64,000 bases of DNA, taken from the sequence record NC_052652.1; one strand, given 5' to 3'. Origin of the DNA: Escherichia phage vB_EcoM_PHB05. The notes below the pieces were generated by a model. That model saw nothing but the letters and a program-made list of their open reading frames with translations. It was not told the DNA's origin and made no database searches. The position numbers and the translations under genes were made by a program. This document shows, piece by piece, positions 6,237-27,480 of this stretch (positions within the stretch are counted from its first letter, which is position 1; each line of letters opens with the position of its first letter).

Positions 6237-6239
6237 GTC

Positions 6240-7033: not shown

Positions 7034-7047
7034 TAAGGAGTAATATT

Positions 7048-7467: not shown

Positions 7468-7483
7468 TAAAAGGAGTTTTTAA

Positions 7484-8494: not shown

Positions 8495-8496
8495 AA

Positions 8497-9234
8497 ATGG
8501 ATGCTTTAAATTTTGTAACAGCAATCCGTGGATTAATCAACGAACAAGTTGCGGAAGTACATACATCTTTACCTGTAAGGGTAATTGGTGTAGATTATGG
8601 ATCTAAGACAGTAACTTTAGAATCTATTGTAAAAAACACCAGATCTACTGAAGATGAAATAGATTACCCAACATTCCACGATGTTCCTTTTATGGTAAAT
8701 GGTGGTGGTACAGGTAGAATTTCATTTCCAATTAAAGCAGGAGATATTGGTGTTGTTGTCTTTTCGGAAAGAGATCCGTCGAATGCTTTCCAGACAGATG
8801 GAGATACAGCCAGCAGCGGAACATTAATTCAACCTTGCGGTTTGTATCCAGCCTGTTTTATTCCTAAGATAGCAACAGCTACAGATTCTTCAGAAGAAGT
8901 AGATTCTGAAAAAGTTGTTATCTCAAATAATAAGCAAACTTACGCTTCGTTTGATCCTAACGGTAATATATCTGTGTACAACACACAAGGTATGAAAATA
9001 GATATGACACCAAACAGTATCGTTCTTACTGATGCAGGAGGAGGAAAACTTACACTGCAAGGTGGGACTATGACATATAAAGGTGGCACTGTAAATTTAA
9101 ACGGTTTAACAATCACACCTGACGGTCGTATGAAAGATAGTGGTGGCATTGGTTTACACACACATACACACCCTGTACGCGGTGTTGAAACTGGTGGTAG
9201 CACTGTTACTTCCGACAAACCAAATGGAGGTTAA
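8497..9234 (+). CDS. Baseplate central spike protein (Gp138_N / gpV-like)
   Basis: N-terminal pattern LPVRVIGVD...GGGTGRISFPIKAGDIGVVVFSERD typical of phage baseplate spike N-domains, followed by Gly-rich beta-rich C-terminus. Confidence 0.5.
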   Translation: MDALNFVTAIRGLINEQVAEVHTSLPVRVIGVDYGSKTVTLESIVKNTRSTEDEIDYPTFHDVPFMVNGGGTGRISFPIKAGDIGVVVFSERDPSNAFQTDGDTASSGTLIQPCGLYPACFIPKIATATDSSEEVDSEKVVISNNKQTYASFDPNGNISVYNTQGMKIDMTPNSIVLTDAGGGKLTLQGGTMTYKGGTVNLNGLTITPDGRMKDSGGIGLHTHTHPVRGVETGGSTVTSDKPNGG

Positions 9235-9237
9235 CAG

Positions 9238-9873
9238 ATGGGAATACCATTTGATTTAAAACTTGATGGTTCTAACGATTTAGTAATGGTGGATGGTGAT
9301 TTAACACTAACCACAACTAAAAGTGAAATTGCAGCACAGACGCTTGGAATAACACTTAGAACTTTCCGTGGAGAATGGTTCCTCAATTCTAATTTTGGGG
9401 TTCCATATCTGCAAGAGATTATTGGTGTTGCCAAGAAGAAAGAGATTGTTGATCGCATTTTCTTATCAACTATCGCAAGTAATGTTTATATAGATAATAT
9501 TAATTCCTACACGTCCTCTTATGATAGAGATGATAGGTATTACTCAATGAACGTTACTGTTACAGTTGGTGAACAAGTTGTTAGTGCGCTGTTCAGTACA
9601 CAGCCGTCTGAAGAATATATTTATCCAGAAGCTGGTGATGATAATGCAGCAATCACTTGTGAAGCATTTGAAATTGTTGAATCTGCAAATAGACTCTATC
9701 GCTTTATTAACATTGTTGGTCTTCCTAAAGATACTTATTCTACTTGGTGGAATGAATGGTCTAACGAGGCATTGCTTGAAAAATACCTTGTTAACGAAGC
9801 CAATAAAGGTCTTGCAACCAATTACAACTATGCTATAACAGCAACAATGGGAGCTACAAATAATAATGGCTGA
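9238..9873 (+). CDS. Baseplate protein (putative)
   Basis: 211-aa ORF directly after spike gene. Confidence 0.35.
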   Translation: MGIPFDLKLDGSNDLVMVDGDLTLTTTKSEIAAQTLGITLRTFRGEWFLNSNFGVPYLQEIIGVAKKKEIVDRIFLSTIASNVYIDNINSYTSSYDRDDRYYSMNVTVTVGEQVVSALFSTQPSEEYIYPEAGDDNAAITCEAFEIVESANRLYRFINIVGLPKDTYSTWWNEWSNEALLEKYLVNEANKGLATNYNYAITATMGATNNNG

Positions 9874-10339
9874 TTTAACTACAATCAAGGTGTCTGATCT
9901 ACCTGTAACAACATCTGTTTCAGACACAGATTATTTTGTAACAGATCAATCAGGTATCACTAAGAAAACATCGTTACGTGTTCTTCTTGCGGGTGCTGGT
10001 GTTACACGAAATCGTCTTTCTGCAAGGGGTACTGTCACAAATACCCTAGCTTTAGATATTAGCACGGCAGAGTATTTCTCTGCCACTTTATCTAGTCCAA
10101 CTTGCAGTATTTCATTTAGTAATGTTCCAGTTACAACTAACATTGTTCAAAACTTTACTCTATCCCTACGTCAAGGAAGTGGAGCAAATAAAGTAACGTG
10201 GCCTCAATCTGTTAAATGGAGTTTTGGTCGCGCTCCTGTTTTGAGTTATAAACAGGGAGCTACAGATATTTTTGAATTTGTTAGTTATGATAATGGAGCT
10301 ACCTGGATAGGTAGTTTAGTGATGGCAGGAGTGATTTAA
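9866..10339 (+). CDS. Tail fiber adaptor-like protein
   Basis: 157 aa; N-terminus (KVSDLPVTTSVSDTDYFVTDQSG) resembles N-terminus of tailspike 15392..17965. Confidence 0.4.
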   Translation: MADLTTIKVSDLPVTTSVSDTDYFVTDQSGITKKTSLRVLLAGAGVTRNRLSARGTVTNTLALDISTAEYFSATLSSPTCSISFSNVPVTTNIVQNFTLSLRQGSGANKVTWPQSVKWSFGRAPVLSYKQGATDIFEFVSYDNGATWIGSLVMAGVI

Positions 10340-13215
10340 TGTCAAGAATTAAGCACAGAATTGACAATGTTTTTCAACTGATCGATGGACATATTCAGTT
10401 CTTAGATCGTAATACAGGTTTAACTGTAGATCCTACAGTGCAACACTATGTATTAAACCCACAAAACGTTCTAGCTAATAACAGACACTTTATAAACTGG
10501 ACTGCTCAAGAAGGGCAACCAAACGGGGATGCTACAACAGAAGGTCAATCCGTGCTTATTCTTGGTTGCGCTTATGCATACCTGGCTTCCGGCGATACAA
10601 AGTATTTAGACTCTGCTAAAAAATATTGGCAAGCCTATATAGATTACTTCTTTGGTGGTCAACCTATCCCAGATCCGCCAGCAAAATATCGCCCTAACTG
10701 GATTATTAACGGTAAAGAACCACGTCTTGCACACTATCCTCTTACAGATGATGGCTACCCTACACACGGAGGTTTTAAGGGTAGCTTAATGACGTGGACT
10801 AACGGTAGAACAGTTATTCCTCATGGTGCTCCACATTGGGGAGAATACCTTGACAAAGCATGGTTTGCTTTTAATGGTAATCTAGGATGGAACTCTGTAA
10901 ACGCTACAGTATATGCTGTTAATGCAGATGGAACAACAGATTGGTCTAAGAATGGAGATCAATGGGACGTTGATTGGATCATTGATCGTCTAGGACGTAA
11001 AGTTGATTGGGATGGAAATATCTTAGAAGAAGGTTTTCCAACATCTCAATACGGAACAGTTCAACTAAAAAATACTTCTGTAAACGGTACATATAAATTT
11101 AACTACGCAACTTGTAACCCTGTTGAACACGGTGGTTATTTAATGGAGCGTAACACTATGTGGCATAACAGACCAGTTAACGTTCCGGTAGAAATGGGCT
11201 TTCAGGATAATGCGTCAGATGCCGAAACTTGGTGGTGTGATGCTAATTACCTGATGTACCAAATTACAGGAGAAAGAAAATATTGGCTATGCTGGCAGTC
11301 TTCACTGTTAGTGTGTCAAGATTACTCAAACATTGATATGTTTGATAAATTCTTCCGTAAGTCTACATATGCAACTATCCCGTTTACAGATGGCATCTCT
11401 TACGATTATTCGTATCCATCTACAGCAATACCTAAATATTCAAGAGATACTTTAGGTTATATTGTTATTAGACAAGATGTTGCTGCTCAAACAACATTAG
11501 AACAGCAAGCCATTTGGTTTAAAGTTGATCAGAACTCTAAGTTACGAGTCCAGTTTCAAGGTGTAGATGACGCAGGAGATGGTATTCTTTTCCGTCCAGA
11601 GTTGGAATTAAGTAAGACCAAAGATGAAAATAACACAGTAACTTACCGTTGTGGCTTACCACTGGGTACAGCTAATATGACAAGCATGGATATTCCACTA
11701 TCCAGCTTTATGAGAAGCACCCCTCCGAATGGTGGAACATATATTATCGCAGACCCGCGAATTATTGTTGACTGGGGTGACAATACTGTGGTACAATATA
11801 AGTATGTAACAGGTATTGCTGGAACTAATAATGACCAGATTGTTACTGCATCAATGGATACGGATGGTGGTGTTACTGTTGGTTTTTGGTTAACTCCTAC
11901 ATCAAAAGCTAATGTTAAGTCTATTACATATAGAACATATGAAGATGACTTTAACATGACTATCACGGATGCTCAAGGTTGGAGATGGTGGGCTATGCTT
12001 CCTAAAACGCAAGGGGCATGGAGTACGAAGACTTTATCAGCTTCTGATTTTAAGTTAAGTGCTTACCAGCCTAATCATCCAGAAACAGATCCTAAACCTT
12101 CAGCAATAAACCTTACTGCTGTAGATCAGGTAAATTTAGTTCTCGATACGGCTCCTGTCAATGGTTTAACAGGAACAATAGATTTCTATTGTATTAACGA
12201 TGTACCTGAAAGATATTCGTCATCTTCTGGTGATGATTATACCATGTACTTCCGTATCACTGTACAGGCTTCAAATCCTCATACTGCTAAGTTAGGTGAT
12301 TGTACTATTATTGACTATAAGTTAAACAGTCTTAATTACACACCAGGAATAATTCCATTCTCTAATATCAGTGACCCAAACACTGCATTGTATGATGGTT
12401 GGCGTGGTATTCCATATCCAGGATACCAATACCCTTCCTTATACTGTTTTGCAGGTAGAGATATTGATTGGACGCGTTTAAATAACAGTATCAATTTCTT
12501 GTATGATGCTCAAATGTGGTTTTATAACACGTTTGATCCTGTGATGCCTGGGCCTATGGCACAAGCGTATGTGTGGGATCGTTGGGATGCAAGAAAATAC
12601 GGTGAACCGAATACGTTCACAATGAAACACTGGAATGAAAAAGCGTGGGATGGTTATGAAGCTCGTGCATTCTACTGTGCTTGTCATGCTGTATACGAAC
12701 TTGTACAAAGAGGAGAAACACCTCCTGAAAAACTGGTAACAGTTTGTAAAAATTGGATCAACTATCTTAAATGGTTCCAAGACAATAATGATGGAAGAAC
12801 ACCAACTATCTTTAACCCAGATGGTACAGTTCTTGCACCTATAGATGACTTTACTAGTCATATGTCGGCACTGTTTATGGCGGGTTGTTCAATCATGGGC
12901 TTGGCAGGTTATGATTCACAAATTCCAAACATTGGTATTGTAGCAGACAGATGTTTTGATCTGATTCAGCAAAACTATATTGTGCTTTCCCCTAACCATC
13001 CGATGAATGGTTGCTGGAGTGTTGCACCACGTCCAGATTCAGATAACGGAATGTTCTTTGGTTTCCATGCTGGAGAACTATTACGTGGTTTTGGTTTATA
13101 TGCCTTATATCGTAAACTAAATCCTCAAAACGCCTTACCAATTTTGGACAATAGTAACATACCGACACTAACTGTTCTAACTATGAATGATATTAGTGTT
13201 GATGTAACCAAATAA
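10339..13215 (+). CDS. Large virion-associated protein (fiber/baseplate-attached)
   Basis: 958-aa ORF in tail module; ATGA-type start overlapping upstream stop. Confidence 0.45.
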   Translation: MSRIKHRIDNVFQLIDGHIQFLDRNTGLTVDPTVQHYVLNPQNVLANNRHFINWTAQEGQPNGDATTEGQSVLILGCAYAYLASGDTKYLDSAKKYWQAYIDYFFGGQPIPDPPAKYRPNWIINGKEPRLAHYPLTDDGYPTHGGFKGSLMTWTNGRTVIPHGAPHWGEYLDKAWFAFNGNLGWNSVNATVYAVNADGTTDWSKNGDQWDVDWIIDRLGRKVDWDGNILEEGFPTSQYGTVQLKNTSVNGTYKFNYATCNPVEHGGYLMERNTMWHNRPVNVPVEMGFQDNASDAETWWCDANYLMYQITGERKYWLCWQSSLLVCQDYSNIDMFDKFFRKSTYATIPFTDGISYDYSYPSTAIPKYSRDTLGYIVIRQDVAAQTTLEQQAIWFKVDQNSKLRVQFQGVDDAGDGILFRPELELSKTKDENNTVTYRCGLPLGTANMTSMDIPLSSFMRSTPPNGGTYIIADPRIIVDWGDNTVVQYKYVTGIAGTNNDQIVTASMDTDGGVTVGFWLTPTSKANVKSITYRTYEDDFNMTITDAQGWRWWAMLPKTQGAWSTKTLSASDFKLSAYQPNHPETDPKPSAINLTAVDQVNLVLDTAPVNGLTGTIDFYCINDVPERYSSSSGDDYTMYFRITVQASNPHTAKLGDCTIIDYKLNSLNYTPGIIPFSNISDPNTALYDGWRGIPYPGYQYPSLYCFAGRDIDWTRLNNSINFLYDAQMWFYNTFDPVMPGPMAQAYVWDRWDARKYGEPNTFTMKHWNEKAWDGYEARAFYCACHAVYELVQRGETPPEKLVTVCKNWINYLKWFQDNNDGRTPTIFNPDGTVLAPIDDFTSHMSALFMAGCSIMGLAGYDSQIPNIGIVADRCFDLIQQNYIVLSPNHPMNGCWSVAPRPDSDNGMFFGFHAGELLRGFGLYALYRKLNPQNALPILDNSNIPTLTVLTMNDISVDVTK

Positions 13216-13223
13216 GGAAAATA

Positions 13224-15383
13224 ATGAAACAGGCTATTTTTACTGTAACTCGAAATACGAGAGTAAATGCCAGTTCATTCAGCTATAAGACCGTCGATGG
13301 AACGGCGGTCGCTGGTAGAGATTATGTAGCTAAACAGGGAACAGTAACGTTCCCTTCTGATGCAGATTCTGCTACTGTAGTGGTTGATGTATATGAACGT
13401 CCGGCAAACTCTTTAGATCTTTATTTTACTCTTGAGATTACTAGCATAAGTCAAAATAACATGATGATCAACGAAGAAATTCGTTGTGTTATTACGACTG
13501 ATCAATCGAATACAACCCCGCTAACTTGGCCTGTTGTGAAGTCTAGAATGTTTGATCCTAAGTTTTGGACAATAGATTCTCAAGCAACAGAAAGTTGTTC
13601 TATTATCTCTAATGGTGATTCTTTCACAGCAAGAATGGTTAATAGGACAGTGGCTGGTCTTGCTGGGATTATTTGGTCAACTTACGATAAATATGATCAC
13701 AAAGGATTAGGCTACCAAGAACATTCTGACTTAAGTAAAGAGAAACTTTGGTTTAAAATGGAACTTAGTCAAGGTGTTCCTGGATTAAAAGAAGAAAAAT
13801 TAATACCATCCTTAACAGTGACACTGAAGGATGAAACAGTTCATTATGTATCTCTAAACTTTTATGCAGAAGAAGTTTCAGAAGATGGTAAGACAGCAAC
13901 AATCAAACTAGATTTCTCAAATTTAAAATCTGGGTCAGAAAATGATATTGTTGTTGACACTACACAGATAGATAATATGTTCTTCTCCTTGATCTCCACA
14001 AGGTATCAAGAAATTGAAGAAATTATTCCTGTAGACAATGTGGATCTTTCCTTTAAATTTACCATACTGGAGCCTGACACTGGTTACAGTATGATGAATA
14101 TGGGTAATTTAAATGTTCCAGCACACACCATAAGAATGTGCACATCTTATGATGATATGTATAACCTGACCCCAGAGCGAGTTATTTCTAACACCTACAG
14201 ATTAGGTTATAGGGATATGATTAACCACTATAATGGTATGTCACACTATTATCAGTTTAGTTGGGATGCTGGTTCTAATAAATGGGTTTTGAATAGAACA
14301 GAATATTTAAACCCAGCAACAGAAGCATGGTTTGATAATTTCCACGCTAATGCAAAAGCTATGGGCTACACAGTAATGAATTCCTTAAGTTTTGAACTTA
14401 TGAGTACAGTGTGTCCTGTAGAATGGGTACAACATACTTGGAATGATGATCTGGCTGCTACAGGTTATGAGCCACCAAGTTATGTTTTATCTCCTTCAAT
14501 TGATGAAGGGATGAATTATTTACAAGGTGTAATAAATAAGATAGCTTCTATATCCGCTGCCAATGATCTTCCTGTTATTATTCAGGTTGGTGAACCGTGG
14601 TGGTGGTATAACACAGCTACCAATCTACCGTGTATTTATGATTATACAACCAAAGTTGCATTTAATAATGAAACTGGATTGTATGCACAAGATGTTGGTA
14701 CAGTTAAAAATTATAAAACTGGTACACCATATGATGAATATTATGCATTCCTATCTAAAACATTAGGACTGCGTGTTGCTAAATTTGCAACAGATACCAG
14801 ATTAGCATATCCTGGAGCTAAAGTTACATTATTACCATTTGTGCCATCCATTTTGGGTAATGGTATGATGGAGTTTGTTAACTTCCCTAAAGATTATTAT
14901 ATCCCAGAGAACTTTGACTTTTATTGTTCAGAATGTTATGACTGGTTGTTGGAAGGTAAGATGGAAAAATCTTTCGACGCTATCACAATACCTAATGAGC
15001 AACTAGGTTTTAGTTACGATAAGATACACTATCTTGCAGGGTTTGTTCCAGACGCAACTCTAGCACCATTATATGGCTTTGATCCTGAATCAGACTACAG
15101 AACATATTTGTGGAAAATGATTATAGGTAATATTGTATTGAATGATCAGAAGTTTGTTGGTTTATATCAATACATATGGGCTTACCCACAAATAATGCAT
15201 GATTCAATAACTGTTCTTAATTCAAAATCCCAAGTGTTTTATATGGGTAATGTGCCTTTGAATTGCTACTTGCAAGATATCACTCTTAAACAAGTAAATG
15301 CTGAGATTGCCACCATAAGTGGAATTACATTAGCCACTAAATCTGGAGAAGATTTAGTAACAACACAAAAATTTTATATATAG
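13224..15383 (+). CDS. Virion protein with N-terminal Calx-beta-like domain
   Basis: 719 aa; N-terminal segment YKTVDGTAVAGRDYVAKQGTVTFPSDADSATVVVDV resembles Calx-beta motif. Confidence 0.45.
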   Translation: MKQAIFTVTRNTRVNASSFSYKTVDGTAVAGRDYVAKQGTVTFPSDADSATVVVDVYERPANSLDLYFTLEITSISQNNMMINEEIRCVITTDQSNTTPLTWPVVKSRMFDPKFWTIDSQATESCSIISNGDSFTARMVNRTVAGLAGIIWSTYDKYDHKGLGYQEHSDLSKEKLWFKMELSQGVPGLKEEKLIPSLTVTLKDETVHYVSLNFYAEEVSEDGKTATIKLDFSNLKSGSENDIVVDTTQIDNMFFSLISTRYQEIEEIIPVDNVDLSFKFTILEPDTGYSMMNMGNLNVPAHTIRMCTSYDDMYNLTPERVISNTYRLGYRDMINHYNGMSHYYQFSWDAGSNKWVLNRTEYLNPATEAWFDNFHANAKAMGYTVMNSLSFELMSTVCPVEWVQHTWNDDLAATGYEPPSYVLSPSIDEGMNYLQGVINKIASISAANDLPVIIQVGEPWWWYNTATNLPCIYDYTTKVAFNNETGLYAQDVGTVKNYKTGTPYDEYYAFLSKTLGLRVAKFATDTRLAYPGAKVTLLPFVPSILGNGMMEFVNFPKDYYIPENFDFYCSECYDWLLEGKMEKSFDAITIPNEQLGFSYDKIHYLAGFVPDATLAPLYGFDPESDYRTYLWKMIIGNIVLNDQKFVGLYQYIWAYPQIMHDSITVLNSKSQVFYMGNVPLNCYLQDITLKQVNAEIATISGITLATKSGEDLVTTQKFYI

Positions 15384-15391
15384 GAGTAAAA

Positions 15392-17965
15392 ATGTCAACT
15401 ACAATTACTAATTTACCAGAAACATCAAAAGTTAATGATTCTGATTACCTGGTTTTAGACCAATCTGATAAGACTGTTAAAAGCACAGTTTCCAAATTTC
15501 TTGCTGACACTGGGGTGGTTTTAGCCACCCAGTTGAAAGATACAGATGGAGCAGATTTAATACAATCCTCAAATGGTAATACTGTTCAGGAAGAGTTGAA
15601 TAACAATCTTCTTAATGATCGTGAACAGTGGCGTCGTAGTCTTGCAGAGGCAGGGTTAACACTTGTCGATGGTAGCTTTGAAGAGGGGGCTACAGTGGGC
15701 AGTGTAACTGATGCTATCTGGTACATGGCAGGTGCTCAGTGCTACACATGGGATGGTGTATTACCTAAAGACGTACCACCTAAATCAACCCCGACATCAA
15801 CTGGTGGTGTTGATTCTGGTGCTTGGGTTAGTGTTGGTGATATGTCATTAAAGGATAATCTTTCAAACTCCAGTAATGATAATTACGGTGATGCGCTGGT
15901 AGCAGTTAAGCAGCCGTATACTACCGCAATAAACAGAACGCAGCATGATAAAAATGCTGATGTACTTGATATTTCTGATTTTGGTGTAGATATAACTGGT
16001 GCTTCTGATGAGGGCAGTAAGTTACAACAGATATTTAATGAGTTGGCCGCAGCAGGCAAGTCTATTCGTATGCACGGGTCTGTAAAGACTACTATTAACT
16101 TAGATATACGGTGTAATGTGCTGTTTGAACCAGGGTTTAAATTAACTGGCGTGAAGCTAGAAACTGGACCGCAGACCTACATTAATATTTTTAATCGTAA
16201 TATAGATGTAAGCCATATTGTTCTAGATGGCATTGTTATGTGTTTCTACCCTGTAAGTTCCACGACTACTGTTAGAAACAAGAGATGTATTACGTTTACA
16301 TCAAATACGTTAGAAGACTCGTGTGTCCGGGTGGGCGGTGATAACCTCTCTGTGCGTAACGTGTTAATTTCTAACAATACTTTTAAGAACTCCGGGTCAC
16401 GTGTTCCAACAGCAATTCGCCTAATCAATGTCTCAAACGTTGAGGTAAGTTTTAACCTTATCCAGGAGTATGGTAGGCCTATTTATCAAACAGCAACTCG
16501 CTCTTTCTCTAACTACAATGTCAATATACACCACAATAATGTGGTTTGTGATTATGGTATAGTTCTTGAGGGTACTACTGCTTTTAGAGTTAGTAAGTTC
16601 ACAATTGCTGACAATGACATTGTTTGTGAGGTAAGGAACACAGCAGCAGGTGGACGAGATGCGATTGATGTCCGCTATGGCACTAGCGGACAAATACTCA
16701 ATAACAACATCAGAACTAATGGCAGAAACATTCGTTTATCCAATACTAAAGCTGATGTTCTATTTAATGATATGGTATCGAGTGCAACAAGTGCATTCTC
16801 TGTATTGATGGCTAGTTGCTATGAATCATCTTTTATTGGTAATAAAGTTTTCAATAATTCTACTGCTGAAATTATTGTTGTGCATGTGCAGACAGAGGCT
16901 GGAGGTCTTTACACGAGTAACAACGTAAGAATCGAATCCAACACTATCAAAGGTTTTGGTCGTCTGATTCGTGTGTTGGACACCAAGGATTATGTTGTTA
17001 CTAACAATAGATTAATAAGGACTTCAAACAATGGTAATGCAGTTATTGTTGCAGATGGTACTAGTGACAGAGGCCAGGTGCATAGCAATGTGGTAGTTGG
17101 TCCTGCTGGGGTTGTTGTATCTAGTATCAGCGGAACCAACAATGCAACAACCACTGCTGATACACTTCTGAGTGTTGCAGCTAACAGCAAGACCGTAACA
17201 GCCGTGGCGAATGGATTAGTTGATCCAGACTTGAATAATTCGAAGGCATTCATCTTCAATGTTCAGGTATCTGATGTTCAGATGTTACGAGCTTTATCAT
17301 CAACTGGTGCATCAAACGCCAAGACAGTATCTCAATTCATGGCTAGGGTATCCGGTGCAACCTTAGCTTGGAATGGTACTGCCTCAGTATCTGAAGTGGG
17401 TGGACCACCTGACATCTTCGTAAATGGTGTTCTTCAAGACTCATACGGTGCAGAAGATTATATATTCTACCGGTCAGGTATGCTTATTGACTCACAGAAT
17501 AAACTCAGTGTCCGTGACTTCCAGTGTACTGGCGATGGGGATACTACCGATGATGGTACAGGGGAAATGACGCTCCGTAATATGGCAGCAGCACAAGCAG
17601 CTGAGGGGGCTATTCACAGCGCATTCTTCCGTTCTCCTCTGGTTATGGATGGGGTTATTTACAATCCTGACACCACAGGAATTTATAAAAAATCTTACTT
17701 TGATACATCTCTAGATCCTAGAATGGCTATAGGACAAAAAGCTGATGGAACCTACGTTATTATTTGTGTTAATGGTAGATACGCAGATGGGGTAAGTCCA
17801 GGCTGCACTATGCAGCAGCTAGCATCTAAGTTTGTAGCCCTGGGTTGTATCAACGCAATGAACTTGGATGGCGGTGGTTCAGCTACTCTTTGGTATAACG
17901 GTACTATCCTTAATACCCCGTCGGATGGAAGTGAACGCCCTGTTTACCATTGTATGTATGTGTAA
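15392..17965 (+). CDS. Tailspike / tail fiber with right-handed beta-helix region and C-terminal LDGGGS domain
   Basis: 857 aa; conserved fiber N-terminus; repeated Asn-rich beta-helix-like segments; C-terminal NAMNLDGGGSATLWYNG. Confidence 0.55.
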   Translation: MSTTITNLPETSKVNDSDYLVLDQSDKTVKSTVSKFLADTGVVLATQLKDTDGADLIQSSNGNTVQEELNNNLLNDREQWRRSLAEAGLTLVDGSFEEGATVGSVTDAIWYMAGAQCYTWDGVLPKDVPPKSTPTSTGGVDSGAWVSVGDMSLKDNLSNSSNDNYGDALVAVKQPYTTAINRTQHDKNADVLDISDFGVDITGASDEGSKLQQIFNELAAAGKSIRMHGSVKTTINLDIRCNVLFEPGFKLTGVKLETGPQTYINIFNRNIDVSHIVLDGIVMCFYPVSSTTTVRNKRCITFTSNTLEDSCVRVGGDNLSVRNVLISNNTFKNSGSRVPTAIRLINVSNVEVSFNLIQEYGRPIYQTATRSFSNYNVNIHHNNVVCDYGIVLEGTTAFRVSKFTIADNDIVCEVRNTAAGGRDAIDVRYGTSGQILNNNIRTNGRNIRLSNTKADVLFNDMVSSATSAFSVLMASCYESSFIGNKVFNNSTAEIIVVHVQTEAGGLYTSNNVRIESNTIKGFGRLIRVLDTKDYVVTNNRLIRTSNNGNAVIVADGTSDRGQVHSNVVVGPAGVVVSSISGTNNATTTADTLLSVAANSKTVTAVANGLVDPDLNNSKAFIFNVQVSDVQMLRALSSTGASNAKTVSQFMARVSGATLAWNGTASVSEVGGPPDIFVNGVLQDSYGAEDYIFYRSGMLIDSQNKLSVRDFQCTGDGDTTDDGTGEMTLRNMAAAQAAEGAIHSAFFRSPLVMDGVIYNPDTTGIYKKSYFDTSLDPRMAIGQKADGTYVIICVNGRYADGVSPGCTMQQLASKFVALGCINAMNLDGGGSATLWYNGTILNTPSDGSERPVYHCMYV

Positions 17966-18011
17966 TTATCTGGTGGGACTGAGCTAATGGCGTAGATTTC
18001 ATAGCAAAAAA

Positions 18012-18027
18012 CCCCGCTTCGGCGGGG
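18012..18027. terminator. GC stem-loop (ccccgc-ttcg-gcgggg) flanked by A-run; second copy at 18602..18617
   Basis: Perfect 6-bp inverted repeat after tailspike stop; A-tract upstream rather than T-tract downstream, so orientation ambiguous. Confidence 0.35.
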
Positions 18028-18057
18028 TAATCATTGAGAATAACAATAGGAGTACAT

Positions 18058-18156
18058 ATGGAATCTCAACTCAGTCAACCTAAGCAGGTTATCAACGTCA
18101 AAGTGAACAAGCAGAGTATCGCTCATGATTTAAAAAGTAATGAGAACGCACTATGA
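18058..18156 (+). CDS. Small ORF (32 aa), duplicated at 18648..18746
   Basis: ATG with AGGAG RBS; stop overlaps next start in ATGA; below ORF-track size cutoff, read from DNA. Confidence 0.25.
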   Translation: MESQLSQPKQVINVKVNKQSIAHDLKSNENAL

Positions 18157-18362
18157 GAAAATTTTTAATAGGTATGTTCTGTACATATCCTGATAATAAA
18201 GTCAGTTCTACTAAAGTTTGGAATGCTATTGGTATGATTGTTATGTCCAGTATGTTTATTTATTTGGGAATTGATAAAGAAATTCCTGAATGGATGGGCT
18301 GGGCTTTTGTTTTTATGATCACACCATCCAGACTAATGAAGAATCGTTATTATTTGTGTTAA
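18153..18362 (+). CDS. Duplication-derived variant of small membrane protein (C-terminus altered by repeat junction)
   Basis: First 63 residues identical to ORF 18743..18988, then reads across junction (ends NRYYLC). Confidence 0.3.
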   Translation: MRKFLIGMFCTYPDNKVSSTKVWNAIGMIVMSSMFIYLGIDKEIPEWMGWAFVFMITPSRLMKNRYYLC

Positions 18363-18934
18363 TGGTAGATACGCAGATGGGGTAAGTCCAGGCTGCACTA
18401 TGCAGCAGCTAGCATCTAAGTTTGTAGCCCTGGGTTGTATCAACGCAATGAACTTGGATGGCGGTGGTTCAGCTACTCTTTGGTATAACGGTACTATCCT
18501 TAATACCCCGTCGGATGGAAGTGAACGCCCTGTTTACCATTGTATGTATGTGTAATTATCTGGTGGGACTGAGCTAATGGCGTAGATTTCATAGCAAAAA
18601 ACCCCGCTTCGGCGGGGTAATCATTGAGAATAACAATAGGAGTACATATGGAATCTCAACTCAGTCAACCTAAGCAGGTTATCAACGTCAAAGTGAACAA
18701 GCAGAGTATCGCTCATGATTTAAAAAGTAATGAGAACGCACTATGAGAAAATTTTTAATAGGTATGTTCTGTACATATCCTGATAATAAAGTCAGTTCTA
18801 CTAAAGTTTGGAATGCTATTGGTATGATTGTTATGTCCAGTATGTTTATTTATTTGGGAATTGATAAAGAAATTCCTGAATGGATGGGCTGGGCTTTTGT
18901 TTTTATGATCACACCATCCAGACTAATGAAGAAT
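18345..18934 (+). repeat. Tandem direct repeat, copy 2 (590 bp)
   Basis: Second copy immediately adjacent to copy 1; sequence diverges after gaat at 18934. Confidence 0.85.
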
Positions 18935-18988
18935 TTAATAGATTTACGTTGGGGCAGATCACCTGCCCCTGATAAGGAGGATAACTAA
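18743..18988 (+). CDS. Small membrane protein (two predicted TM helices)
   Basis: 81 aa with two hydrophobic stretches; intact copy in repeat 2. Confidence 0.45.
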   Translation: MRKFLIGMFCTYPDNKVSSTKVWNAIGMIVMSSMFIYLGIDKEIPEWMGWAFVFMITPSRLMKNLIDLRWGRSPAPDKEDN

Positions 18989-20475
18989 TGGCAGATTATG
19001 GTTTAACAGATGCTGGTTTTGTAATTCCAACGTTTGATGATATTTTAAATAATTATATGACAGCATTGAAAAACACTTTCGGTGCAGATACAGCTACATC
19101 TGAAGATACTGTCTTTGGACAACTGTTCCGTATTATTGCATACACAGATTACACCCTTTGGGAAGGTATGCAAGGTGTTTACAATACCCAAACCTTAGAT
19201 GGTGCAGAAGGTATTTACCTTGATGAAATCTTCTCTAAAAGAGGTTTTTATCGTAAAGCTGCTTCTGCTGGTAGTGGTTATGCTTATGTTAAATCTAACA
19301 ATAAGGCAGCTTGGACTTATGAACTAAGCACAGATGTTTATTTTAATGCCGATAACGATTTGACATATTATGTCAGTGCACCAACAATGTTGAATGCTAA
19401 GATTGGAGCATATACCATTTCTAAAGCAAACGCAACAGCTTCTGGTGAAACTTCTATTACTTTCTACATTCAAAGTGCTATTGATGGTGGTCTTAACAGT
19501 AAAACATTAAGTCCTAGCAATACAAACTTTATTTTAGATCTCACGAATTTCATTAAAGCTAACGTATCAACAACAGATCGTGCTTTAGTATGGAATGATG
19601 CTAGTAATGTTTATATGGGTTATAATCCAGAAGATAATGTTAACCCAATAGGTCTAGTAACACCAGTGAAATTTTATGCATCCATTGCAATTGGTACAAA
19701 ATGGAGTGAAATTCCAGTTACGTGTTCAGACGTTGGTTATAATCCAGTAGGTACAGAAAGTATTACAGGTATTTCTTCAACGTTTACAGGCTTTTTAGAT
19801 ACAGGTAACTTCTATCCGTTCTCTCCAGGTACAGATGTTGAAACAGATGCAGAATTCCGTTCTCGTTTCAATGATAATATGGATGAAGCTAATGCTGCTA
19901 CTCGTGCTGCTATTGTTAAAGCTCTATTACTGACAGATGGTGTGACAAAGGTTAAGATTTATGATAACCCTACACTACACGATCAGGAACATGCTCCAGC
20001 TATGACATTCCAGACTATTGTGTATGGTGGTACAGCAGAAGAAGTTGCACAGGTTATTTATAATACTAAGCCTATTAACACATTAACTTATGGTACGACA
20101 GCAATTACTATCGTAACAGAAGATGGTGGTCAAGAAGTAATTCGTTTTTCTCCTGGTGATAATGCGGAATACTCACTTAAACTGGTATATCAAACTGGTA
20201 ATGGTAGTGTGTTAAGTACAACAGAAAGAGAAAATATTGTTTCTGCTCTTGCAAACTTACAGGCTTATTTTGAATTAGGGTCAACAGTAACTAACGACCA
20301 GATAAAAGGTGTAATTTATTCTGCACTTGCGTTCGGACGCTTGACTTCTCTCCGTGTTTATGTTAAACTTAATACTGAGGATGACAGTAAATATAATGAG
20401 GGAGATATCACTCCAGCGTACAATGTTGTACCATCCTTTGACCTTGATAATATTTCCTACGAGTACGGAGTCTAA
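18988..20475 (+). CDS. Baseplate J-like protein (putative)
   Basis: 495 aa; size and position in baseplate block, followed by small tail-protein gene. Confidence 0.45.
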   Translation: MADYGLTDAGFVIPTFDDILNNYMTALKNTFGADTATSEDTVFGQLFRIIAYTDYTLWEGMQGVYNTQTLDGAEGIYLDEIFSKRGFYRKAASAGSGYAYVKSNNKAAWTYELSTDVYFNADNDLTYYVSAPTMLNAKIGAYTISKANATASGETSITFYIQSAIDGGLNSKTLSPSNTNFILDLTNFIKANVSTTDRALVWNDASNVYMGYNPEDNVNPIGLVTPVKFYASIAIGTKWSEIPVTCSDVGYNPVGTESITGISSTFTGFLDTGNFYPFSPGTDVETDAEFRSRFNDNMDEANAATRAAIVKALLLTDGVTKVKIYDNPTLHDQEHAPAMTFQTIVYGGTAEEVAQVIYNTKPINTLTYGTTAITIVTEDGGQEVIRFSPGDNAEYSLKLVYQTGNGSVLSTTERENIVSALANLQAYFELGSTVTNDQIKGVIYSALAFGRLTSLRVYVKLNTEDDSKYNEGDITPAYNVVPSFDLDNISYEYGV

Positions 20476-20477
20476 AA

Positions 20478-21107
20478 ATGGCAGTGAGTGTTGACCATGT
20501 GACAACGTGGGATAGTATCAATGAAGATGTTAAAGACCTACTGATTGAAGATTTTAAATCTTCTCCGAACATTGTCAAACTACTCTATATCATTTCTAGC
20601 GAAAAACAAAAGATAGATCAGGCAATGATCTATCTTGCCAAACACCGCTTAATCTCTACTGCAACTGGTAAGTATTTAGATCTTATTGGTGAAGAGATGG
20701 GGATGGAGAGAAATGGTGCTACGGATGAAGAGTATCGTACAATATTAAAAATCAGGGCTTATCGTGTTGCGTCTTCTGGTACGCGAGATGATATCATTGA
20801 TATGTTCGCTCGTTTTACAGGAACAGAAAAAGAAACGATCAATACATACGTTGGATTAAATAAAACATTCGACGTATTCTTTTATAATTTGTGTCTACAA
20901 TCCGATCAGGCAGTAGCACAGTTACTTAACGTTTTCCCGATCCTAAGTAGTTATCGCTTAGGTGCGAAAGCGGGTGCAGCCTTTGGTTTCACTTCCTATT
21001 ATGCCACAAAGCCACCTCATGGTATAGGTGGTTTAGGTTCTCTTTACACAGAGGCTGAAGGAGATGATACAGGGCGAATGACTATGCTGATAGCTCAAAT
21101 AGAATAA
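20478..21107 (+). CDS. Tail/baseplate protein (putative)
   Basis: 209-aa ORF translationally coupled to upstream gene. Confidence 0.35.
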   Translation: MAVSVDHVTTWDSINEDVKDLLIEDFKSSPNIVKLLYIISSEKQKIDQAMIYLAKHRLISTATGKYLDLIGEEMGMERNGATDEEYRTILKIRAYRVASSGTRDDIIDMFARFTGTEKETINTYVGLNKTFDVFFYNLCLQSDQAVAQLLNVFPILSSYRLGAKAGAAFGFTSYYATKPPHGIGGLGSLYTEAEGDDTGRMTMLIAQIE

Positions 21108-21120
21108 GGAGTTACTCTTA

Positions 21121-22101
21121 ATGGCAAAGCCACAATACTACCCTGACTGGGCGACACAAACAGTAACCCTCCCAGGAACGGGAAACACAAACAAGATTAG
21201 ACCAAAAGAAACCATCCGTAATGTCGGTATGGACTTTGGTCAGATTATGACTTGTGAAGAAATGAACTGGATCTTAAACAATATTGGGTCTTGGATTCGC
21301 TATATGCAAGATGAATTCTTCCCAACATTGCCTACTACATATCTTCCTATAGTCGGTACTAAAATTACAATGGCAGGTGATGCTACAGGTGAAGTTACAT
21401 GGAACGGTAATGCTGCTGTAACATTGTCTATTCAAGTCGTAGATAACAGCCATAATCACTTATCAGCTAACATTACAGACGCAACATCAAACCAAGTTGT
21501 AGGGAATGTCCTTGTTAAGCGTGATAATGGTGGTGCTATCTATGCAGGTGATATTTACACTTGTGGTACAGGTGCTACAGATCCTGCAACATTATTTTTT
21601 AGAAACTATAACGGACAAACAGTAGGCAATATGTCTTCTGAACCAGGTGCAGGTGGTCAACTCTATATTTATAGAATAAATCCATCTACTGGAGGAACAT
21701 CTTGTGGAGTTCGTTTGTATGATGCAGGTTATGTTTTAATAGACAATCCTCGTTCTAATTCTGGTCAAGACACTGGCAATGGTAATGCTCTTGTAAGATT
21801 AGATTATCTTAACTCAAGACTAAACTCATTGCAAAGTACATTGCAAAATAATATTAACAACGTTAATAGCAACTTGCAAGGCCAAATTAATAACATTAAC
21901 AATAGAGTTTCTTCTGTTGTGTCTTCTATCCGTCTAGGTACACGTATTAAAGCTGGTGTATCTGAATCTCCTTTCTATGCTGGTCACGTGATCACAGGCT
22001 GGGGTTTTGGTGATAAGAAAGAACTTCGTGGTGCTTGGTATTGGTCTGCTCCGCTACAATATTACATTAATGGTAGGTGGATAACAGTAACCAACGTTTA
22101 G
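21121..22101 (+). CDS. Tail fiber protein (putative)
   Basis: 326 aa; Asn-rich heptad-like segment LNSRLNSLQSTLQNNINNVNSNLQGQINNINNRVSSV typical of fiber shafts. Confidence 0.4.
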   Translation: MAKPQYYPDWATQTVTLPGTGNTNKIRPKETIRNVGMDFGQIMTCEEMNWILNNIGSWIRYMQDEFFPTLPTTYLPIVGTKITMAGDATGEVTWNGNAAVTLSIQVVDNSHNHLSANITDATSNQVVGNVLVKRDNGGAIYAGDIYTCGTGATDPATLFFRNYNGQTVGNMSSEPGAGGQLYIYRINPSTGGTSCGVRLYDAGYVLIDNPRSNSGQDTGNGNALVRLDYLNSRLNSLQSTLQNNINNVNSNLQGQINNINNRVSSVVSSIRLGTRIKAGVSESPFYAGHVITGWGFGDKKELRGAWYWSAPLQYYINGRWITVTNV

Positions 22102-22113
22102 TAAGGAGAACAC

Positions 22114-22665
22114 ATGAAAAAAGATGTTATTTACACTGGCTTTGAACTATATCAACCAGAATTGACAGAAGAAAATGTCATGTATCTTTCAATAGGTGCT
22201 GGTTTTCTTAAAGATAAAGATGGTAATGATTGGTACGAAATTCAGAAATATTTATCCAAAAATTACCCTGATGCCTATTTCTTAACTCTAGATCACAACA
22301 ATGTAGTTGTTGCAGCTACGAAAGATGTTTCTACATATTTTCCCGCTGGTCTTACTGTTCTTGTAACATACAATGTTCCAGATAAGATAGAAGAAGAAAG
22401 CAACCTAGGATCGTGGAGATATGACAATGGTAAGTTTGTTTCTCATAATGGGTTTGCAATAGAAGATGCCAACCTTAAAATGGAAAAAGAATTAACTTGG
22501 GCCACAAATCAAATATCTGCAATTCAAGATTTAGAGGAATTACAAGGTTTATCTGAAGAACAAAAAGATTGGTTAGGAAAAGTTAAACTATATCGTGCAA
22601 CACTGATTCAAATTAACGTTGAAGATGCACCTAATATAACTTGGCCTACAAGACCTAAGAAATAG
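22114..22665 (+). CDS. Hypothetical protein (tail fiber assembly candidate)
   Basis: 183 aa directly downstream of fiber gene. Confidence 0.3.
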   Translation: MKKDVIYTGFELYQPELTEENVMYLSIGAGFLKDKDGNDWYEIQKYLSKNYPDAYFLTLDHNNVVVAATKDVSTYFPAGLTVLVTYNVPDKIEEESNLGSWRYDNGKFVSHNGFAIEDANLKMEKELTWATNQISAIQDLEELQGLSEEQKDWLGKVKLYRATLIQINVEDAPNITWPTRPKK

Positions 22666-22674
22666 GGGTAATGT

Positions 22675-23016
22675 ATGGAGCTAACAGAAGTATGGGATAT
22701 CGCTAAAGAGGCGATTATCCCTCTTATTGGTGTAATCTGGGTGGTCTTCAAACAGAAGATAGATGATATAGCAAGTGATTTGGATAAAATGGAAGACAAA
22801 TACCGTGAACTAGAAAAGAAGTTGGTGTTTGTTGAATCCACTTATGCTACCAAAGCAGAACTTGCTCAAATGCTTAACCAGATCAACTCTACATTAATGG
22901 CAAATAATACTGCCTTAGAACAGAAAATTGAAAAAATAATGGATTTAAAAAATGCTCCTGTTCAATTAATGCTAGAGGAGATTACGAAGCGCACACAAAG
23001 TAAGGACAAAAATTAA
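22675..23016 (+). CDS. Hypothetical coiled-coil protein
   Basis: 113-aa ORF; stop overlaps next start. Confidence 0.35.
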   Translation: MELTEVWDIAKEAIIPLIGVIWVVFKQKIDDIASDLDKMEDKYRELEKKLVFVESTYATKAELAQMLNQINSTLMANNTALEQKIEKIMDLKNAPVQLMLEEITKRTQSKDKN

Positions 23017-25430
23017 TGGCGAATTTTCCAACATATCCTGCTACGACACTAGAACAAGGTGTTGATCTGGTTATATTCTCGTCTAACCAGATGCATGATG
23101 TTATTAACGGGGATGCTACAGCAACTGTAGAAACCGAAACAGGTTTAATACCTACACTGCGTAAAGCACTTGTTGATAACTTCTTCTTTAAGAGTCCTGT
23201 TGCTTGGTCAGCAGGATCAACTGAAACTGTATTTAACCAGTTACGTTATTTTGAAAACGGCATCTTGAGTGGGTACTACTATGCCCCATCTGCCACTACT
23301 GCGAACCCTGTACCTATGCAGGGTACACCTGTAGGAGACAGTAACTGGACTCTGTATGCTCTTAAAACTGAACAGTTAGCTTCAGATGTGTATCCTTGGT
23401 ATTTTAAAGGTGCTACAGGGTATGAGACAGAAATCAGTCCTCCTTATATCTTTGATAATGCTATTGTCACCATTAACGGTGTAATTCAGATTCAGGGTGA
23501 AGCATTTACTATCAAAGATAGTAAAATTATTCTGGCAGAACCATTAGGTTTAGATCCGTCTACTGGTCTACCTAACAAATTGTTTGCTTTTATTGGTAAA
23601 ACAACAGCCTCTACTTCTTACGTAGAGAAAAACCTTTTGTCATCTACCACTGGTGCAGCAATGGTTGGTCTTCCATCTGGAGGCAATCTGTTACAAGCTC
23701 AATACTTTGTAACGCCTGAGCAGTTTGGTGCAATTGGTGATGGAGTTACCGATGATACTCAAGCAATTCTAAAAACCATTACTTTCGCTAACACGAATAA
23801 CATTCAAGTACGTGCAGATAAGAATTATAGATTCACAAGCTCAATTGCTATGTCTGGTATTCGTTGGTATGGTGGTACATTCACTGGTAACGGTGGAACA
23901 ATGATTTCTACTGTGTCCTGTTGGATTGAAAACGTTCGCTTTGAAAAATGTTATGTTAAGATGTTAGGTGGTGATTGCCGATTCTATCGTAATATCTTCT
24001 CCAACGCAACATCTACAGCAGCATTCTTAATGCAAGCAATGACAAGTGAAGGTACGTTGGACTTCAGTTACAACGAGATGTATGGTTGTAAATATGCGAT
24101 CCTGCAACAAGGTACTGGAGAAGTAATGACCTATGGGCGTTACTCTAACAACTACATTCACGATATCAAAGGTGATGCTATTGAACTTAACGTAGTTCAA
24201 AGACACTACACTGAAGGTTTGATCATCGAGAATAACCACATTGCTAACGTAGATGCTTCTGGACAAGGTGCAAACTGGGGTATTGGTATTGGTGTAGCAG
24301 GTAGTGGCCCATATGGTGTTGATGCTCCTGATTCACAATATGTACGTAACTTCAGTATCGTTGGAAATAGAGTTTACAATTGCCGTCAATGTCTACACGT
24401 TGAAATGGGTAAAAACTTCACAATACGTGATAACGAAGTTTATCCTAACACAGCAGTTTCAACAGGTACAGGTTTAACTACTTGTGGTGTTGCATTATAC
24501 GGATGCCAAGACTTTGAAGTTGATGGTTTAACTGGTTATCTGCTTAATGATCCGTCTGTTTCAACACGCATGGTCTTTATTGACTGGGGTGTTAACGGTG
24601 GAAGATATGCGGGGCCACCAATTAACTTTACAATTAAGAATTTGGATATTCCAGAATCTTCGATTGAGATTGCAACGGCTGGATCAGACGCCTGGGAAAA
24701 CTCTACAATTGTTAGTAACATCAATTGTAATGATTTTAAATGGCGTGGGCTACCATCTAGCTCTACTTTTAATAATATTCGTTGCCGTAGTATTGACTTT
24801 ATTGGTCAACACGGAAGCGGAGAAGGAAGTGGTGGCGGTTTCTATGCTCGCAGCCAATTCACTTATATGAAGTGGGTAGGATGTACAGCACTTAGCGGAG
24901 ATGAAACAACAGTTTCTTTTGCTAAAATCTACACGGATCGTTGCGATCAGGTTGGAAATAACTTTGGTGTTCCAACTGCTGTTGATGGTACAGGTCATCG
25001 TGGGCCAGTCTTAACCACTATTTCTGAACAATATTTTACAGATTATGATGAATTCCCAGGTGGGCGTGACTTCCCTACTGGAACAGTTATTCATTGTGCA
25101 AGCGGTAAAAAACACGTTGTTACAGTAGGTGGTGCTTTCTTTAGTAATAAAGAGAAAATAAAAGCAACTGTTACAGGTCAAACCTATCTACAGTCTAATG
25201 CTTTAAACTGGGCTAGTAATGGCTACGCTAAAGCGGCAGGTACTAAGATTGTTATTCCAGGTGCAGGAGCAAATGGTGGCGATCTTGTGACAACTATAGC
25301 ACGTGCTACATATGTGACAAATAGTTTGTACACAATAGATATTGCAGATCCAATTGTAACACCTACAGCAGAGAATACACAAATTAAAGCTCTGAACCCT
25401 GTTACTTTTGTTACTGTCAATAATGCTTAA
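23016..25430 (+). CDS. Tailspike with pectate-lyase-like beta-helix (putative depolymerase)
   Basis: 804 aa; FGAIGDGVTDDTQAI motif characteristic of right-handed beta-helix glycosidase/lyase tailspikes. Confidence 0.55.
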   Translation: MANFPTYPATTLEQGVDLVIFSSNQMHDVINGDATATVETETGLIPTLRKALVDNFFFKSPVAWSAGSTETVFNQLRYFENGILSGYYYAPSATTANPVPMQGTPVGDSNWTLYALKTEQLASDVYPWYFKGATGYETEISPPYIFDNAIVTINGVIQIQGEAFTIKDSKIILAEPLGLDPSTGLPNKLFAFIGKTTASTSYVEKNLLSSTTGAAMVGLPSGGNLLQAQYFVTPEQFGAIGDGVTDDTQAILKTITFANTNNIQVRADKNYRFTSSIAMSGIRWYGGTFTGNGGTMISTVSCWIENVRFEKCYVKMLGGDCRFYRNIFSNATSTAAFLMQAMTSEGTLDFSYNEMYGCKYAILQQGTGEVMTYGRYSNNYIHDIKGDAIELNVVQRHYTEGLIIENNHIANVDASGQGANWGIGIGVAGSGPYGVDAPDSQYVRNFSIVGNRVYNCRQCLHVEMGKNFTIRDNEVYPNTAVSTGTGLTTCGVALYGCQDFEVDGLTGYLLNDPSVSTRMVFIDWGVNGGRYAGPPINFTIKNLDIPESSIEIATAGSDAWENSTIVSNINCNDFKWRGLPSSSTFNNIRCRSIDFIGQHGSGEGSGGGFYARSQFTYMKWVGCTALSGDETTVSFAKIYTDRCDQVGNNFGVPTAVDGTGHRGPVLTTISEQYFTDYDEFPGGRDFPTGTVIHCASGKKHVVTVGGAFFSNKEKIKATVTGQTYLQSNALNWASNGYAKAAGTKIVIPGAGANGGDLVTTIARATYVTNSLYTIDIADPIVTPTAENTQIKALNPVTFVTVNNA

Positions 25431-25433
25431 TTA

Positions 25434-25456
25434 AAAGGGGCGAAAGCCCCTTTATA
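25434..25456 (+). terminator. Rho-independent terminator
   Basis: aggggc-gaaa-gcccct hairpin followed by TTTAT. Confidence 0.45.
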
Positions 25457-25470
25457 AAAGGAGTAGTAAA

Positions 25471-27441
25471 GTGATTTTAACACGTCCAAATAGTGCCATT
25501 GCAGACATGGTAGAGTCTCGCTATAGAAAGCGTAGAAGTTTTGCAAGTGGTTTTACCTTAAGAGATGCTCGTGAAGCATTGCTCTTTGAAGCTGACGGTA
25601 ACTACTATCAGTGGAAAGGTTCTCTACCTAAAGTTGTACCTGCTAACTCTACTCCTACATCCACTGGAGGGATTTCAGATACAGCTTGGAAAAATGTGGG
25701 TAATGCAGATGACATTGCTCAAATAGAATCAGAATTAGATGCTATTGAAGCTGAAATTGAAGATCTTAGAGAATCCATCCCAGAAGCTGGTAAATCAGCT
25801 TACCAGATTGCCGTAGACAATGGTTTCCAAGGTACTGAGACACAGTGGTTGGCTTCTTTAAAAGGTGATCCAGGTGCTCCATTAAAGCTATTAGGGACAC
25901 TATCTAATACCAACCAATTACCTACAAGTGGAAACAATGCAGGGGATGCATGGATTGTAGGCGAGGATATGTATGCTTGGGATGGTACTGCTTGGAGAAA
26001 AGTAAACTCACAGGGGCCAGAAGGTAAATCTGCTTATGAAGTATGGCTTGCAGCAGGAAATGAAGGTACAGAACTAGATTATCTTGCTTCAATTAAAGGT
26101 GATAAAGGGGAGCCTGGCCCAGAGGGGCCACAAGGTGTGCCAGGTAACAATGCTAATGGTTTTGATTACCAAGGCGCAGCTAATTCCGTTTCAGATCTTC
26201 CTTCTGCATCTCATGGAAACACATCTCAAGCATGGAGTGTTGGTACATATCTATACGTGTCAAACGGTGTAGAATGGATCAATATGGGCGCTATAGTGGG
26301 GCCAAAAGGAGATAAAGGCGACAAAGGAGATAAGGGTAACACTGGTGATTCAGCTTATCAAGTCTGGTTAAATGCTGGTAACGTTGGTACTATTGACGAA
26401 TATATTGCCTCTCTGAAAGGAGAAAAAGGTGATAAGGGAGACAAGGGTGATCAAGGTGCACAGGGTATACAAGGCTTGACGGGGCCAACTGGTGCAGGGT
26501 TGACCATTATTGACATTCTGACTAGCACTTCTGAACTGCCACAAACTGGGGAAGATGGTGATGGTTATCTGATCAATAATGAACTTTGGGTCTGGTTGCA
26601 AGGAGCCACAGAGTGGACAAATGTTGGTCGTTTAGCTGGTACTCCAATCACTGCAAAAGGACACGTTGCGTTTGCAAGTGCGCTTCCTCCTACAGCCAAT
26701 TACGGTGATGCTTATCTGACGGAAGATACAGGTCATCTTTACATTTACACCTATAATGAACAAACTCAAACTGCTGAATATGTAGATATGGGTAGTTTGA
26801 AAGGTGATAAGGGTGAAAAAGGTGAGAAAGGTGACGCTGGTACTAACGGTACAGACGGTGCAACTTGGATTGTTAAAACAACAGATCCAATCTCTAGTGA
26901 TGGTAAACAAGGTGATTATGCCTTTAATATCTCCACTGGCGAAGTGTTCTTAAAAACATCTGCAACTGTCTGGACTTCTCAAGGTACACTACCTAGTATC
27001 ACAGATGCACCTAGTGATGGTAAGACTTATGCTCGTAAAGATGGGGCATGGGAAGAACTCACTAATTCTGTAGATGGTCAAGATATAGTTCCAACAAAAG
27101 TAACAACTAATTTTATAGAGGTTACAGCATATACCAATAATTCTGTTACAGGGGACTGGACACCTCCAGGAACACATAACATGAATGTGTTGAATCTTAC
27201 TGGTAACGCTACTATAAAAGCATGGCCTGGTGTCGAAGATAGTACAAAACCTAAACCATTCTCTGCAATAGTTTATCTTATCCAAGATGCCACTGGAGGT
27301 CGTACTGTTACTTTAGATCCATCTTACAAAGTAATTGGTTCCAGTGATATTAATACAGATCCTAACGGAGTAACAATACTACAACTAACATATTGTGGTG
27401 TTGGCGATTACGTGGATGCTATTGTTGCTAAACGCACATAA
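25471..27441 (+). CDS. Tail fiber with collagen-like G-X-Y repeats and phage-fiber repeats
   Basis: 656 aa; GDKGDKGDKG and GEKGDKGDKGDQGAQGIQG runs; three repeats of SAY..W...G..GT...Y.AS.KG. Confidence 0.6.
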   Translation: MILTRPNSAIADMVESRYRKRRSFASGFTLRDAREALLFEADGNYYQWKGSLPKVVPANSTPTSTGGISDTAWKNVGNADDIAQIESELDAIEAEIEDLRESIPEAGKSAYQIAVDNGFQGTETQWLASLKGDPGAPLKLLGTLSNTNQLPTSGNNAGDAWIVGEDMYAWDGTAWRKVNSQGPEGKSAYEVWLAAGNEGTELDYLASIKGDKGEPGPEGPQGVPGNNANGFDYQGAANSVSDLPSASHGNTSQAWSVGTYLYVSNGVEWINMGAIVGPKGDKGDKGDKGNTGDSAYQVWLNAGNVGTIDEYIASLKGEKGDKGDKGDQGAQGIQGLTGPTGAGLTIIDILTSTSELPQTGEDGDGYLINNELWVWLQGATEWTNVGRLAGTPITAKGHVAFASALPPTANYGDAYLTEDTGHLYIYTYNEQTQTAEYVDMGSLKGDKGEKGEKGDAGTNGTDGATWIVKTTDPISSDGKQGDYAFNISTGEVFLKTSATVWTSQGTLPSITDAPSDGKTYARKDGAWEELTNSVDGQDIVPTKVTTNFIEVTAYTNNSVTGDWTPPGTHNMNVLNLTGNATIKAWPGVEDSTKPKPFSAIVYLIQDATGGRTVTLDPSYKVIGSSDINTDPNGVTILQLTYCGVGDYVDAIVAKRT

Positions 27442-27444
27442 TCA

Positions 27445-27468
27445 AAGCCCCTTCGGGGGCTTATTATT
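27445..27468 (+). terminator. Rho-independent terminator
   Basis: agcccc-ttcg-ggggct hairpin followed by T-rich tract. Confidence 0.45.
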
Positions 27469-27480
27469 TAAGGAGATTAA

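Follow-up and report, generated by a model that had tools for sequence, protein, structure and literature searches.

A perfect 590-bp tandem repeat in the tail gene module of Escherichia phage vB_EcoM_PHB05, probably a finishing artefact

The repeated locus and its genes

The window analysed here is a stretch of 64,000 nucleotides from the genome of Escherichia phage vB_EcoM_PHB05 (NC_052652.1), a Justusliebigvirus; this myophage of E. coli is phi92-like and belongs to the Stephanstirmvirinae. Within its tail module, a tailspike gene is followed by a small membrane protein gene and a baseplate gene, and a segment reaching from the first of these into the second is present twice in direct succession. 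The features of the locus are as follows.

15392..17965, + strand: intact tailspike gene, 857 aa (open reading frame), with its last 211 nt inside copy 1
17755..18344, + strand: copy 1 of the 590-bp unit, identical to 18345..18934
18011..18028, no strand assigned: GC-rich hairpin, copy 1, with a terminator-like score on the minus strand only
18058..18156, + strand: 32-codon ORF, copy 1 (MESQLSQPKQ...), with the annotated homologue JLBYU50_135
18153..18362, + strand: membrane protein ORF altered by the junction, 69 aa (RYYLC after the first 64 native residues)
18345..18934, + strand: copy 2 of the 590-bp unit, identical to 17755..18344
18345..18555, + strand: orphan second copy of the tailspike 3' end, without the upstream gene body
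18601..18618, no strand assigned: GC-rich hairpin, copy 2
18648..18746, + strand: 32-codon ORF, copy 2 (from the ORF list)
18743..18988, + strand: intact small membrane protein gene, 81 aa, homologue of phi92 gp144 (phrog_1322, 4.7e-27)
18988..20475, + strand: Baseplate J-like wedge subunit gene, directly downstream (Pfam Baseplate_J, 4.4e-11; phrog_6)

The tailspike carries a Tail_spike_N anchor domain in its N-terminal part (Pfam PF18668, 6.7e-18, residues 93-150) and a NAGPA phosphodiester glycosidase domain at its C-terminus (PF09992, 1.3e-25, residues 680-857); its homologue JLBYU50_134 is annotated as a phosphodiester glycosidase family protein. By exact protein look-up, neither the tailspike nor the 719-aa protein encoded upstream of it is on record in identical form. 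The 32-codon ORF matches nothing in Pfam or PHROG. Further downstream, the stop codon of the intact membrane gene overlaps the start of the baseplate gene (TAATG).

Direct base comparison across the 64-kb window finds 0 mismatches between 17755..18344 and 18345..18934, and the perfect 590-bp tandem duplication first described at these positions is thereby borne out. The copies are adjacent, head to tail on the plus strand, and the junction at 18344/18345 reads AAGAAT on its left and CGTTAT on its right. Identity at a period of 590 extends over 590 positions precisely and is lost at the very next base on either side, giving 2.00 copies: the base before copy 1 is A against the unit's last base T, and the base after copy 2 is T against the unit's first base C, leaving 0 bp of microhomology at the junction. 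A chance origin of a perfect match of this length is excluded. Self-blastn detects no other repeat in the window at E<=1e-5, and Tandem Repeats Finder missed the pair solely because its longest period is 500. A mobile element or a member of some other repeat family was considered and ruled out, given a window with no other repeat and no tRNA.

The boundaries of the unit fall inside coding sequences. On the left, its first base is the third of tailspike codon 788, and each copy includes the final 211 nt of the tailspike CDS, with 69 full codons plus the stop; on the right, its last codon is number 64 of the 81 in the membrane protein gene. The anatomy given in the original prediction (tailspike end, GC hairpin, 32-codon ORF, membrane gene) proves right in every detail, as does its expectation of one junction-altered and one intact membrane gene, now seen as the ORFs at 18153..18362 and 18743..18988. 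Every gene at the duplicated locus keeps one intact copy, which is true of tandem duplications in general.

What the junction adds to the coding content is small. The orphan tailspike fragment is readable solely as a 51-aa ATG ORF (18400..18555). Coordinates place codon position 1 at 18345 in the membrane frame and at 18346 in the tailspike frame; a fusion protein across the junction is ruled out, since the two frames lie one base apart and reading on from the membrane gene yields a 5-residue tail only. That tail, RYYLC, is the tailspike fragment read in another frame. As read from its sequence, the 69-aa junction product retains the hydrophobic segments and lacks the charged C-terminal 17 residues of the native protein.

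The hairpin present in each copy has a 7-bp GC stem and a GCTTCGGC-type loop, and its RNA fold has a minimum free energy of -15.4 kcal/mol (z = -2.4). It is unusual in its orientation. A run of six A precedes the stem on the plus (coding) strand, and a run of six T follows the stem on the minus strand. The element thus fits an intrinsic terminator on the minus strand only.

A single unit in relatives, and a variable tailspike slot

The closest record is Escherichia phage JLBYU50 (OK272470.1), which is colinear with the window over positions 1..51091 at 96-98% identity. Colinearity is broken at two places: the duplicated locus, and an insertion of about 515 bp at 33603..34117. JLBYU50 holds a single unit of 593 bp (approximately 73766..74358), with three extra A before the hairpin, and the sequences flanking that unit exactly match those flanking the pair in the window. 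All 13 of 13 substitutions that separate the window from JLBYU50 within the unit, together with the 3-bp indel, are common to both window copies. Because the copies share every difference, the doubled state is derived and younger than the split from JLBYU50. The earlier argument that identical copies imply either a very recent event or an artefact is upheld by these shared differences and by the single copy in JLBYU50.

Comparison with related phage genomes, a check named at the outset, gives the same picture on a wider scale: relatives have a single copy, and no other record searched has the junction. A 400-bp probe centred on the junction was searched against 50,697 phage records, of which 83 matched. 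All but JLBYU50 align on one side and stop at the junction; JLBYU50 aligns as two pieces, which are the two ends of its single unit. The baseplate protein of 18988..20475 recurs with identical sequence in 133 blocks of the collection, and among eight contigs with this protein drawn from NCBI, ENA and Logan as independent assemblies, all eight have one 81-aa membrane gene upstream and no self-repeat. Exact searches with 42- and 28-mers spanning the junction gave no hit among viral, metagenome and genome contigs; the 69-aa junction protein is missing from an index of 153 billion genes, and nothing in complete E. coli genomes or plasmids matches the region. Across the collections searched, then, no independent sequence carries the junction, as would be expected of an artefact.

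The same comparisons characterize the neighbourhood in which the repeat lies. Loci with an identical baseplate protein differ in what stands upstream of the membrane gene, a slot taken by a variable tailspike cassette: some have nothing there, one has a pectate-lyase-type spike and a 49-aa ORF, and another has two smaller genes. In agreement with a variable cassette, homology between phi92 and the window ends near 15543 and picks up again near 18158. Searches with exact 39- and 43-mers found no further carriers of the tailspike cassette present here, leaving JLBYU50 as the one known relative that has it. Positions 1-403 of the unit are cassette-specific and the remainder is the conserved membrane gene part. 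Unequal crossover between two phages during a cassette swap was entertained and ruled out, as the copies are identical in both the cassette-specific and the conserved parts.

Origin of the second copy

The second copy is probably absent from the phage DNA, its presence in the record being most likely a finishing artefact in which an overlap was left untrimmed. Short terminal repeats of the kind this phage family possesses would lead reads to assemble into an apparently circular contig. A linear contig whose ends overlap by 590 bp could then have been re-opened elsewhere, or read across its ends, with the overlap still in place; alternatively, two contigs sharing a 590-bp overlap could have been abutted rather than merged. 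By either route, two letter-perfect copies would come to stand head to tail at a position that is arbitrary. One unit would then be present in the real genome, arranged as in JLBYU50: tailspike, hairpin, 32-codon ORF, 81-aa membrane gene and baseplate gene.

An artefact is favoured because identity between the copies is 100% across the 590 bp, as it has to be in an overlap; because the breakpoints are arbitrary and free of microhomology, as expected of contig ends; because the junction is unique among many close relatives and independent assemblies; and because a direct repeat of this length, bringing no evident benefit, would be expected to be unstable. Besides being perfectly identical, the copies have boundaries that follow no sequence feature. 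Illegitimate recombination in coliphages yields joints without homology less often than joints with it; random breakpoints, however, show zero microhomology 56% of the time, which makes its lack a weak argument for an artefact. A true perfect 590-bp tandem repeat is normally collapsed by short-read assemblers, and manual rotation or joining easily creates one. As for size, 590 bp is a length that a long read or a library insert may have.

Published experience with phage genomes points the same way. According to the Phage Annotation Guide, apparent circularisation is common among assembly artefacts, and deposited phage genomes repeatedly suffer from repeats that remain within contigs (PMC8785237). 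The untrimmed end overlaps discussed there resemble the present case in being letter-perfect repeats with boundaries that ignore genes, confined to one record and of read or insert size. Unlike them, the repeat in the window is internal, and would need a contig re-opened elsewhere or a window running across its ends. Also counting against an artefact, the repeat is longer than the overlaps left by de Bruijn assemblers, which are usually one k-mer (<= ~141 bp). The duplicated arrangement would moreover be fully viable, with an intact tailspike and a membrane gene still coupled to the baseplate gene. The sequence holds no positive proof of error. Structure, uniqueness and the single-copy ancestral state are shown, and from there we infer that the second copy is artefactual. 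The literature searched on the JLBYU phages says nothing on assembly methods.

A real, very recent tandem duplication in the phage isolate is possible but distinctly less probable. Its source would be illegitimate, homology-independent recombination or template switching in replication, with the bottlenecks of single-plaque isolation fixing it. Structurally there is nothing to object to: a simple tandem duplication leaves a segment twice in direct head-to-tail succession, as seen here for one that is single in JLBYU50 and other relatives, and the substitutions and indel carried by both copies place the event after divergence from JLBYU50. No gene is destroyed, and the extra 590 bp amount to 0.4% of a genome of about 146 kb, which stays well inside the 129.8-150.4 kb spanned by the relatives listed.

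From the classical genetics of phages lambda and T4, spontaneous tandem duplications are known that have the same head-to-tail form, leave every gene intact once and create a new ORF at the junction. What sets the repeat in the window apart from those is that it lacks microhomology, shows no evident selection, be it for length compensation or for gene dosage, and has no independent observation behind it. Slippage or illegitimate recombination typically, if not obligatorily, involves short homology at the breakpoints, and here there are 0 bp; the absence of any divergence between the copies and of the junction from every other sequence also weighs against a real event. In a lytic phage, a 590-bp direct repeat would quickly be lost by homologous recombination unless selected, and no obvious benefit would offset such loss here. 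In deposited phage genomes, moreover, finishing errors should greatly outnumber recently fixed duplications (compare PMC8785237). If the duplication is nonetheless in the phage, the record would be a snapshot taken within a few generations of a homology-free origin in a phi92-like tail module.

It is very improbable that the 590 bp are a direct terminal repeat whose two copies stand side by side inside the contig or record, even though relatives have short non-permuted terminal repeats of similar size and such repeats may land inside contigs (PMC8785237). The terminal repeats known from the Stephanstirmvirinae and Vequintavirinae are likewise direct and a few hundred bp long, and they come from the same phage group: 342 bp in BME3 (PMC12210895) and 459 bp in LL12, where the repeat is non-coding and lies between convergent transcripts (PMC6658697). 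The unit in the window differs from both in being coding (two gene parts and a small ORF), in having its copies adjacent rather than at the ends, and in its locus. The BME3 repeat is annotated at 146957..147298 of PP239276, in a gene-free region of about 3 kb; its sequence is 96-97% conserved in 52+ relatives and absent from the window, and its homologue in JLBYU50 (133200..133540) lies 59 kb from the tailspike/membrane unit. The unit, by contrast, starts and ends inside CDSs of a conserved, co-transcribed tail operon, and the sequence at its right boundary is conserved in relatives whose ends lie elsewhere. The suggestion of a packaging-related repeat is thus unsupported, the conserved non-coding terminal repeat of 342-459 bp lying elsewhere. 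From the three origins offered in the original prediction, duplication and artefact both stand, and artefact is the likelier.

Consequences for annotation and for the phage

Whichever origin holds, the annotation of the locus changes, as had been anticipated: the truncated 69-aa membrane ORF and the tailspike tail fragment ought not to be annotated as genes. The warning covers 18153..18362 and 18345..18555, and the main significance of the finding lies in data quality. If the second copy is the finishing artefact that seems probable, the deposited genome is 590 bp too long, and gene callers will pick up a spurious 69-aa membrane protein, a 51-aa tailspike tail ORF and a duplicated 32-codon ORF.

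Either outcome is ordinary, and no new mechanism is suggested. If the duplication is real, the phage would carry the hairpin and the 32-codon ORF twice, along with a truncated 69-aa paralogue of the membrane protein and a tailspike 3' fragment that is dead; the 32-codon ORF would be present in two transcript copies, and tailspike and membrane protein would both be made intact. The duplication would then be small, very young and apparently neutral, of a type long familiar from phages, and of modest interest as a homology-independent event beside a hot spot of tailspike exchange. A truncated membrane protein paralogue and a second hairpin next to an exchangeable tailspike cassette could in that case be a starting point from which new genes arise, or a side product of the recombination by which such cassettes are swapped.

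The tailspike slot and its relatives

The tailspike gene (15392..17965, with a C-terminal NAGPA domain) occupies a variable cassette, the slot separating the gp142-like gene from the small membrane gene, a phi92 gp144 homologue (window about 15543..18157). This cassette was compared in loci L006-L013 (around 5744..5756); it is empty in some relatives, and in others is filled by unrelated spikes. These are the phi92 endosialidase, a spike of the pectate-lyase type, and one of the NAGPA type that is found only in the window and in its closest relative, JLBYU50 (OK272470.1). The small ORF 3' of the spike moves together with the cassette.

Short 18-bp tandem repeats at window 26419..26456 and 26800..26834 encode Gly-X-Y (collagen-like) triplets, in a gene whose JLBYU50 homologue is annotated as tail spike and which carries a faint Collagen Pfam mark in relatives. 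Separately, several phage records labelled Campylobacter in the phage collection (e.g. MG065639 A150 and MG065645 A145) match this phi92-like genome at about 96% identity, as does one labelled Pseudomonas; these probably represent mislabelled hosts or contaminant phages.

A hairpin that is terminator-like on the minus strand

The hairpin that follows the tailspike gene occurs once in each copy of the 590-bp unit:

18011..18028 and 18601..18618: GC hairpin after the tailspike gene, terminator-like on the minus strand only

On the minus strand a T6 run stands 3' of the stem, and only this strand has an intrinsic terminator score; read on the plus strand, the same run is an A6 tract 5' of the stem (A9 at this position in JLBYU50), with no U tract 3' of it. 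The genes around the hairpin are all on the plus strand. Its role may be to stop antisense transcripts or to stabilise 3' ends, rather than to terminate plus-strand transcription.

Convergent transcription and an insertion beside the DNA polymerase gene

Transcription converges at window about 29700..30000, where the GC skew changes sign and plus-strand tail genes give way to minus-strand replication genes. This interval is not where the family's terminal repeat lies, since the annotated 342-bp terminal repeat of the relative BME3 found no match within the window.

Relative to JLBYU50, the window carries an extra segment of ~515 bp at 33603..34117, flanked on one side by the DNA polymerase gene and on the other by a 204-aa ORF whose JLBYU50 homologue is annotated as tRNA nucleotidyltransferase/poly(A) polymerase. 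It accounts for most of one reading frame:

33524..34120, minus strand: 198-aa ORF, mostly inside the ~515-bp insertion

A search of this ORF against Pfam returned no match. This additional, free-standing gene adjoins the polymerase gene, a placement that suggests a candidate homing-endonuclease-like mobile gene.
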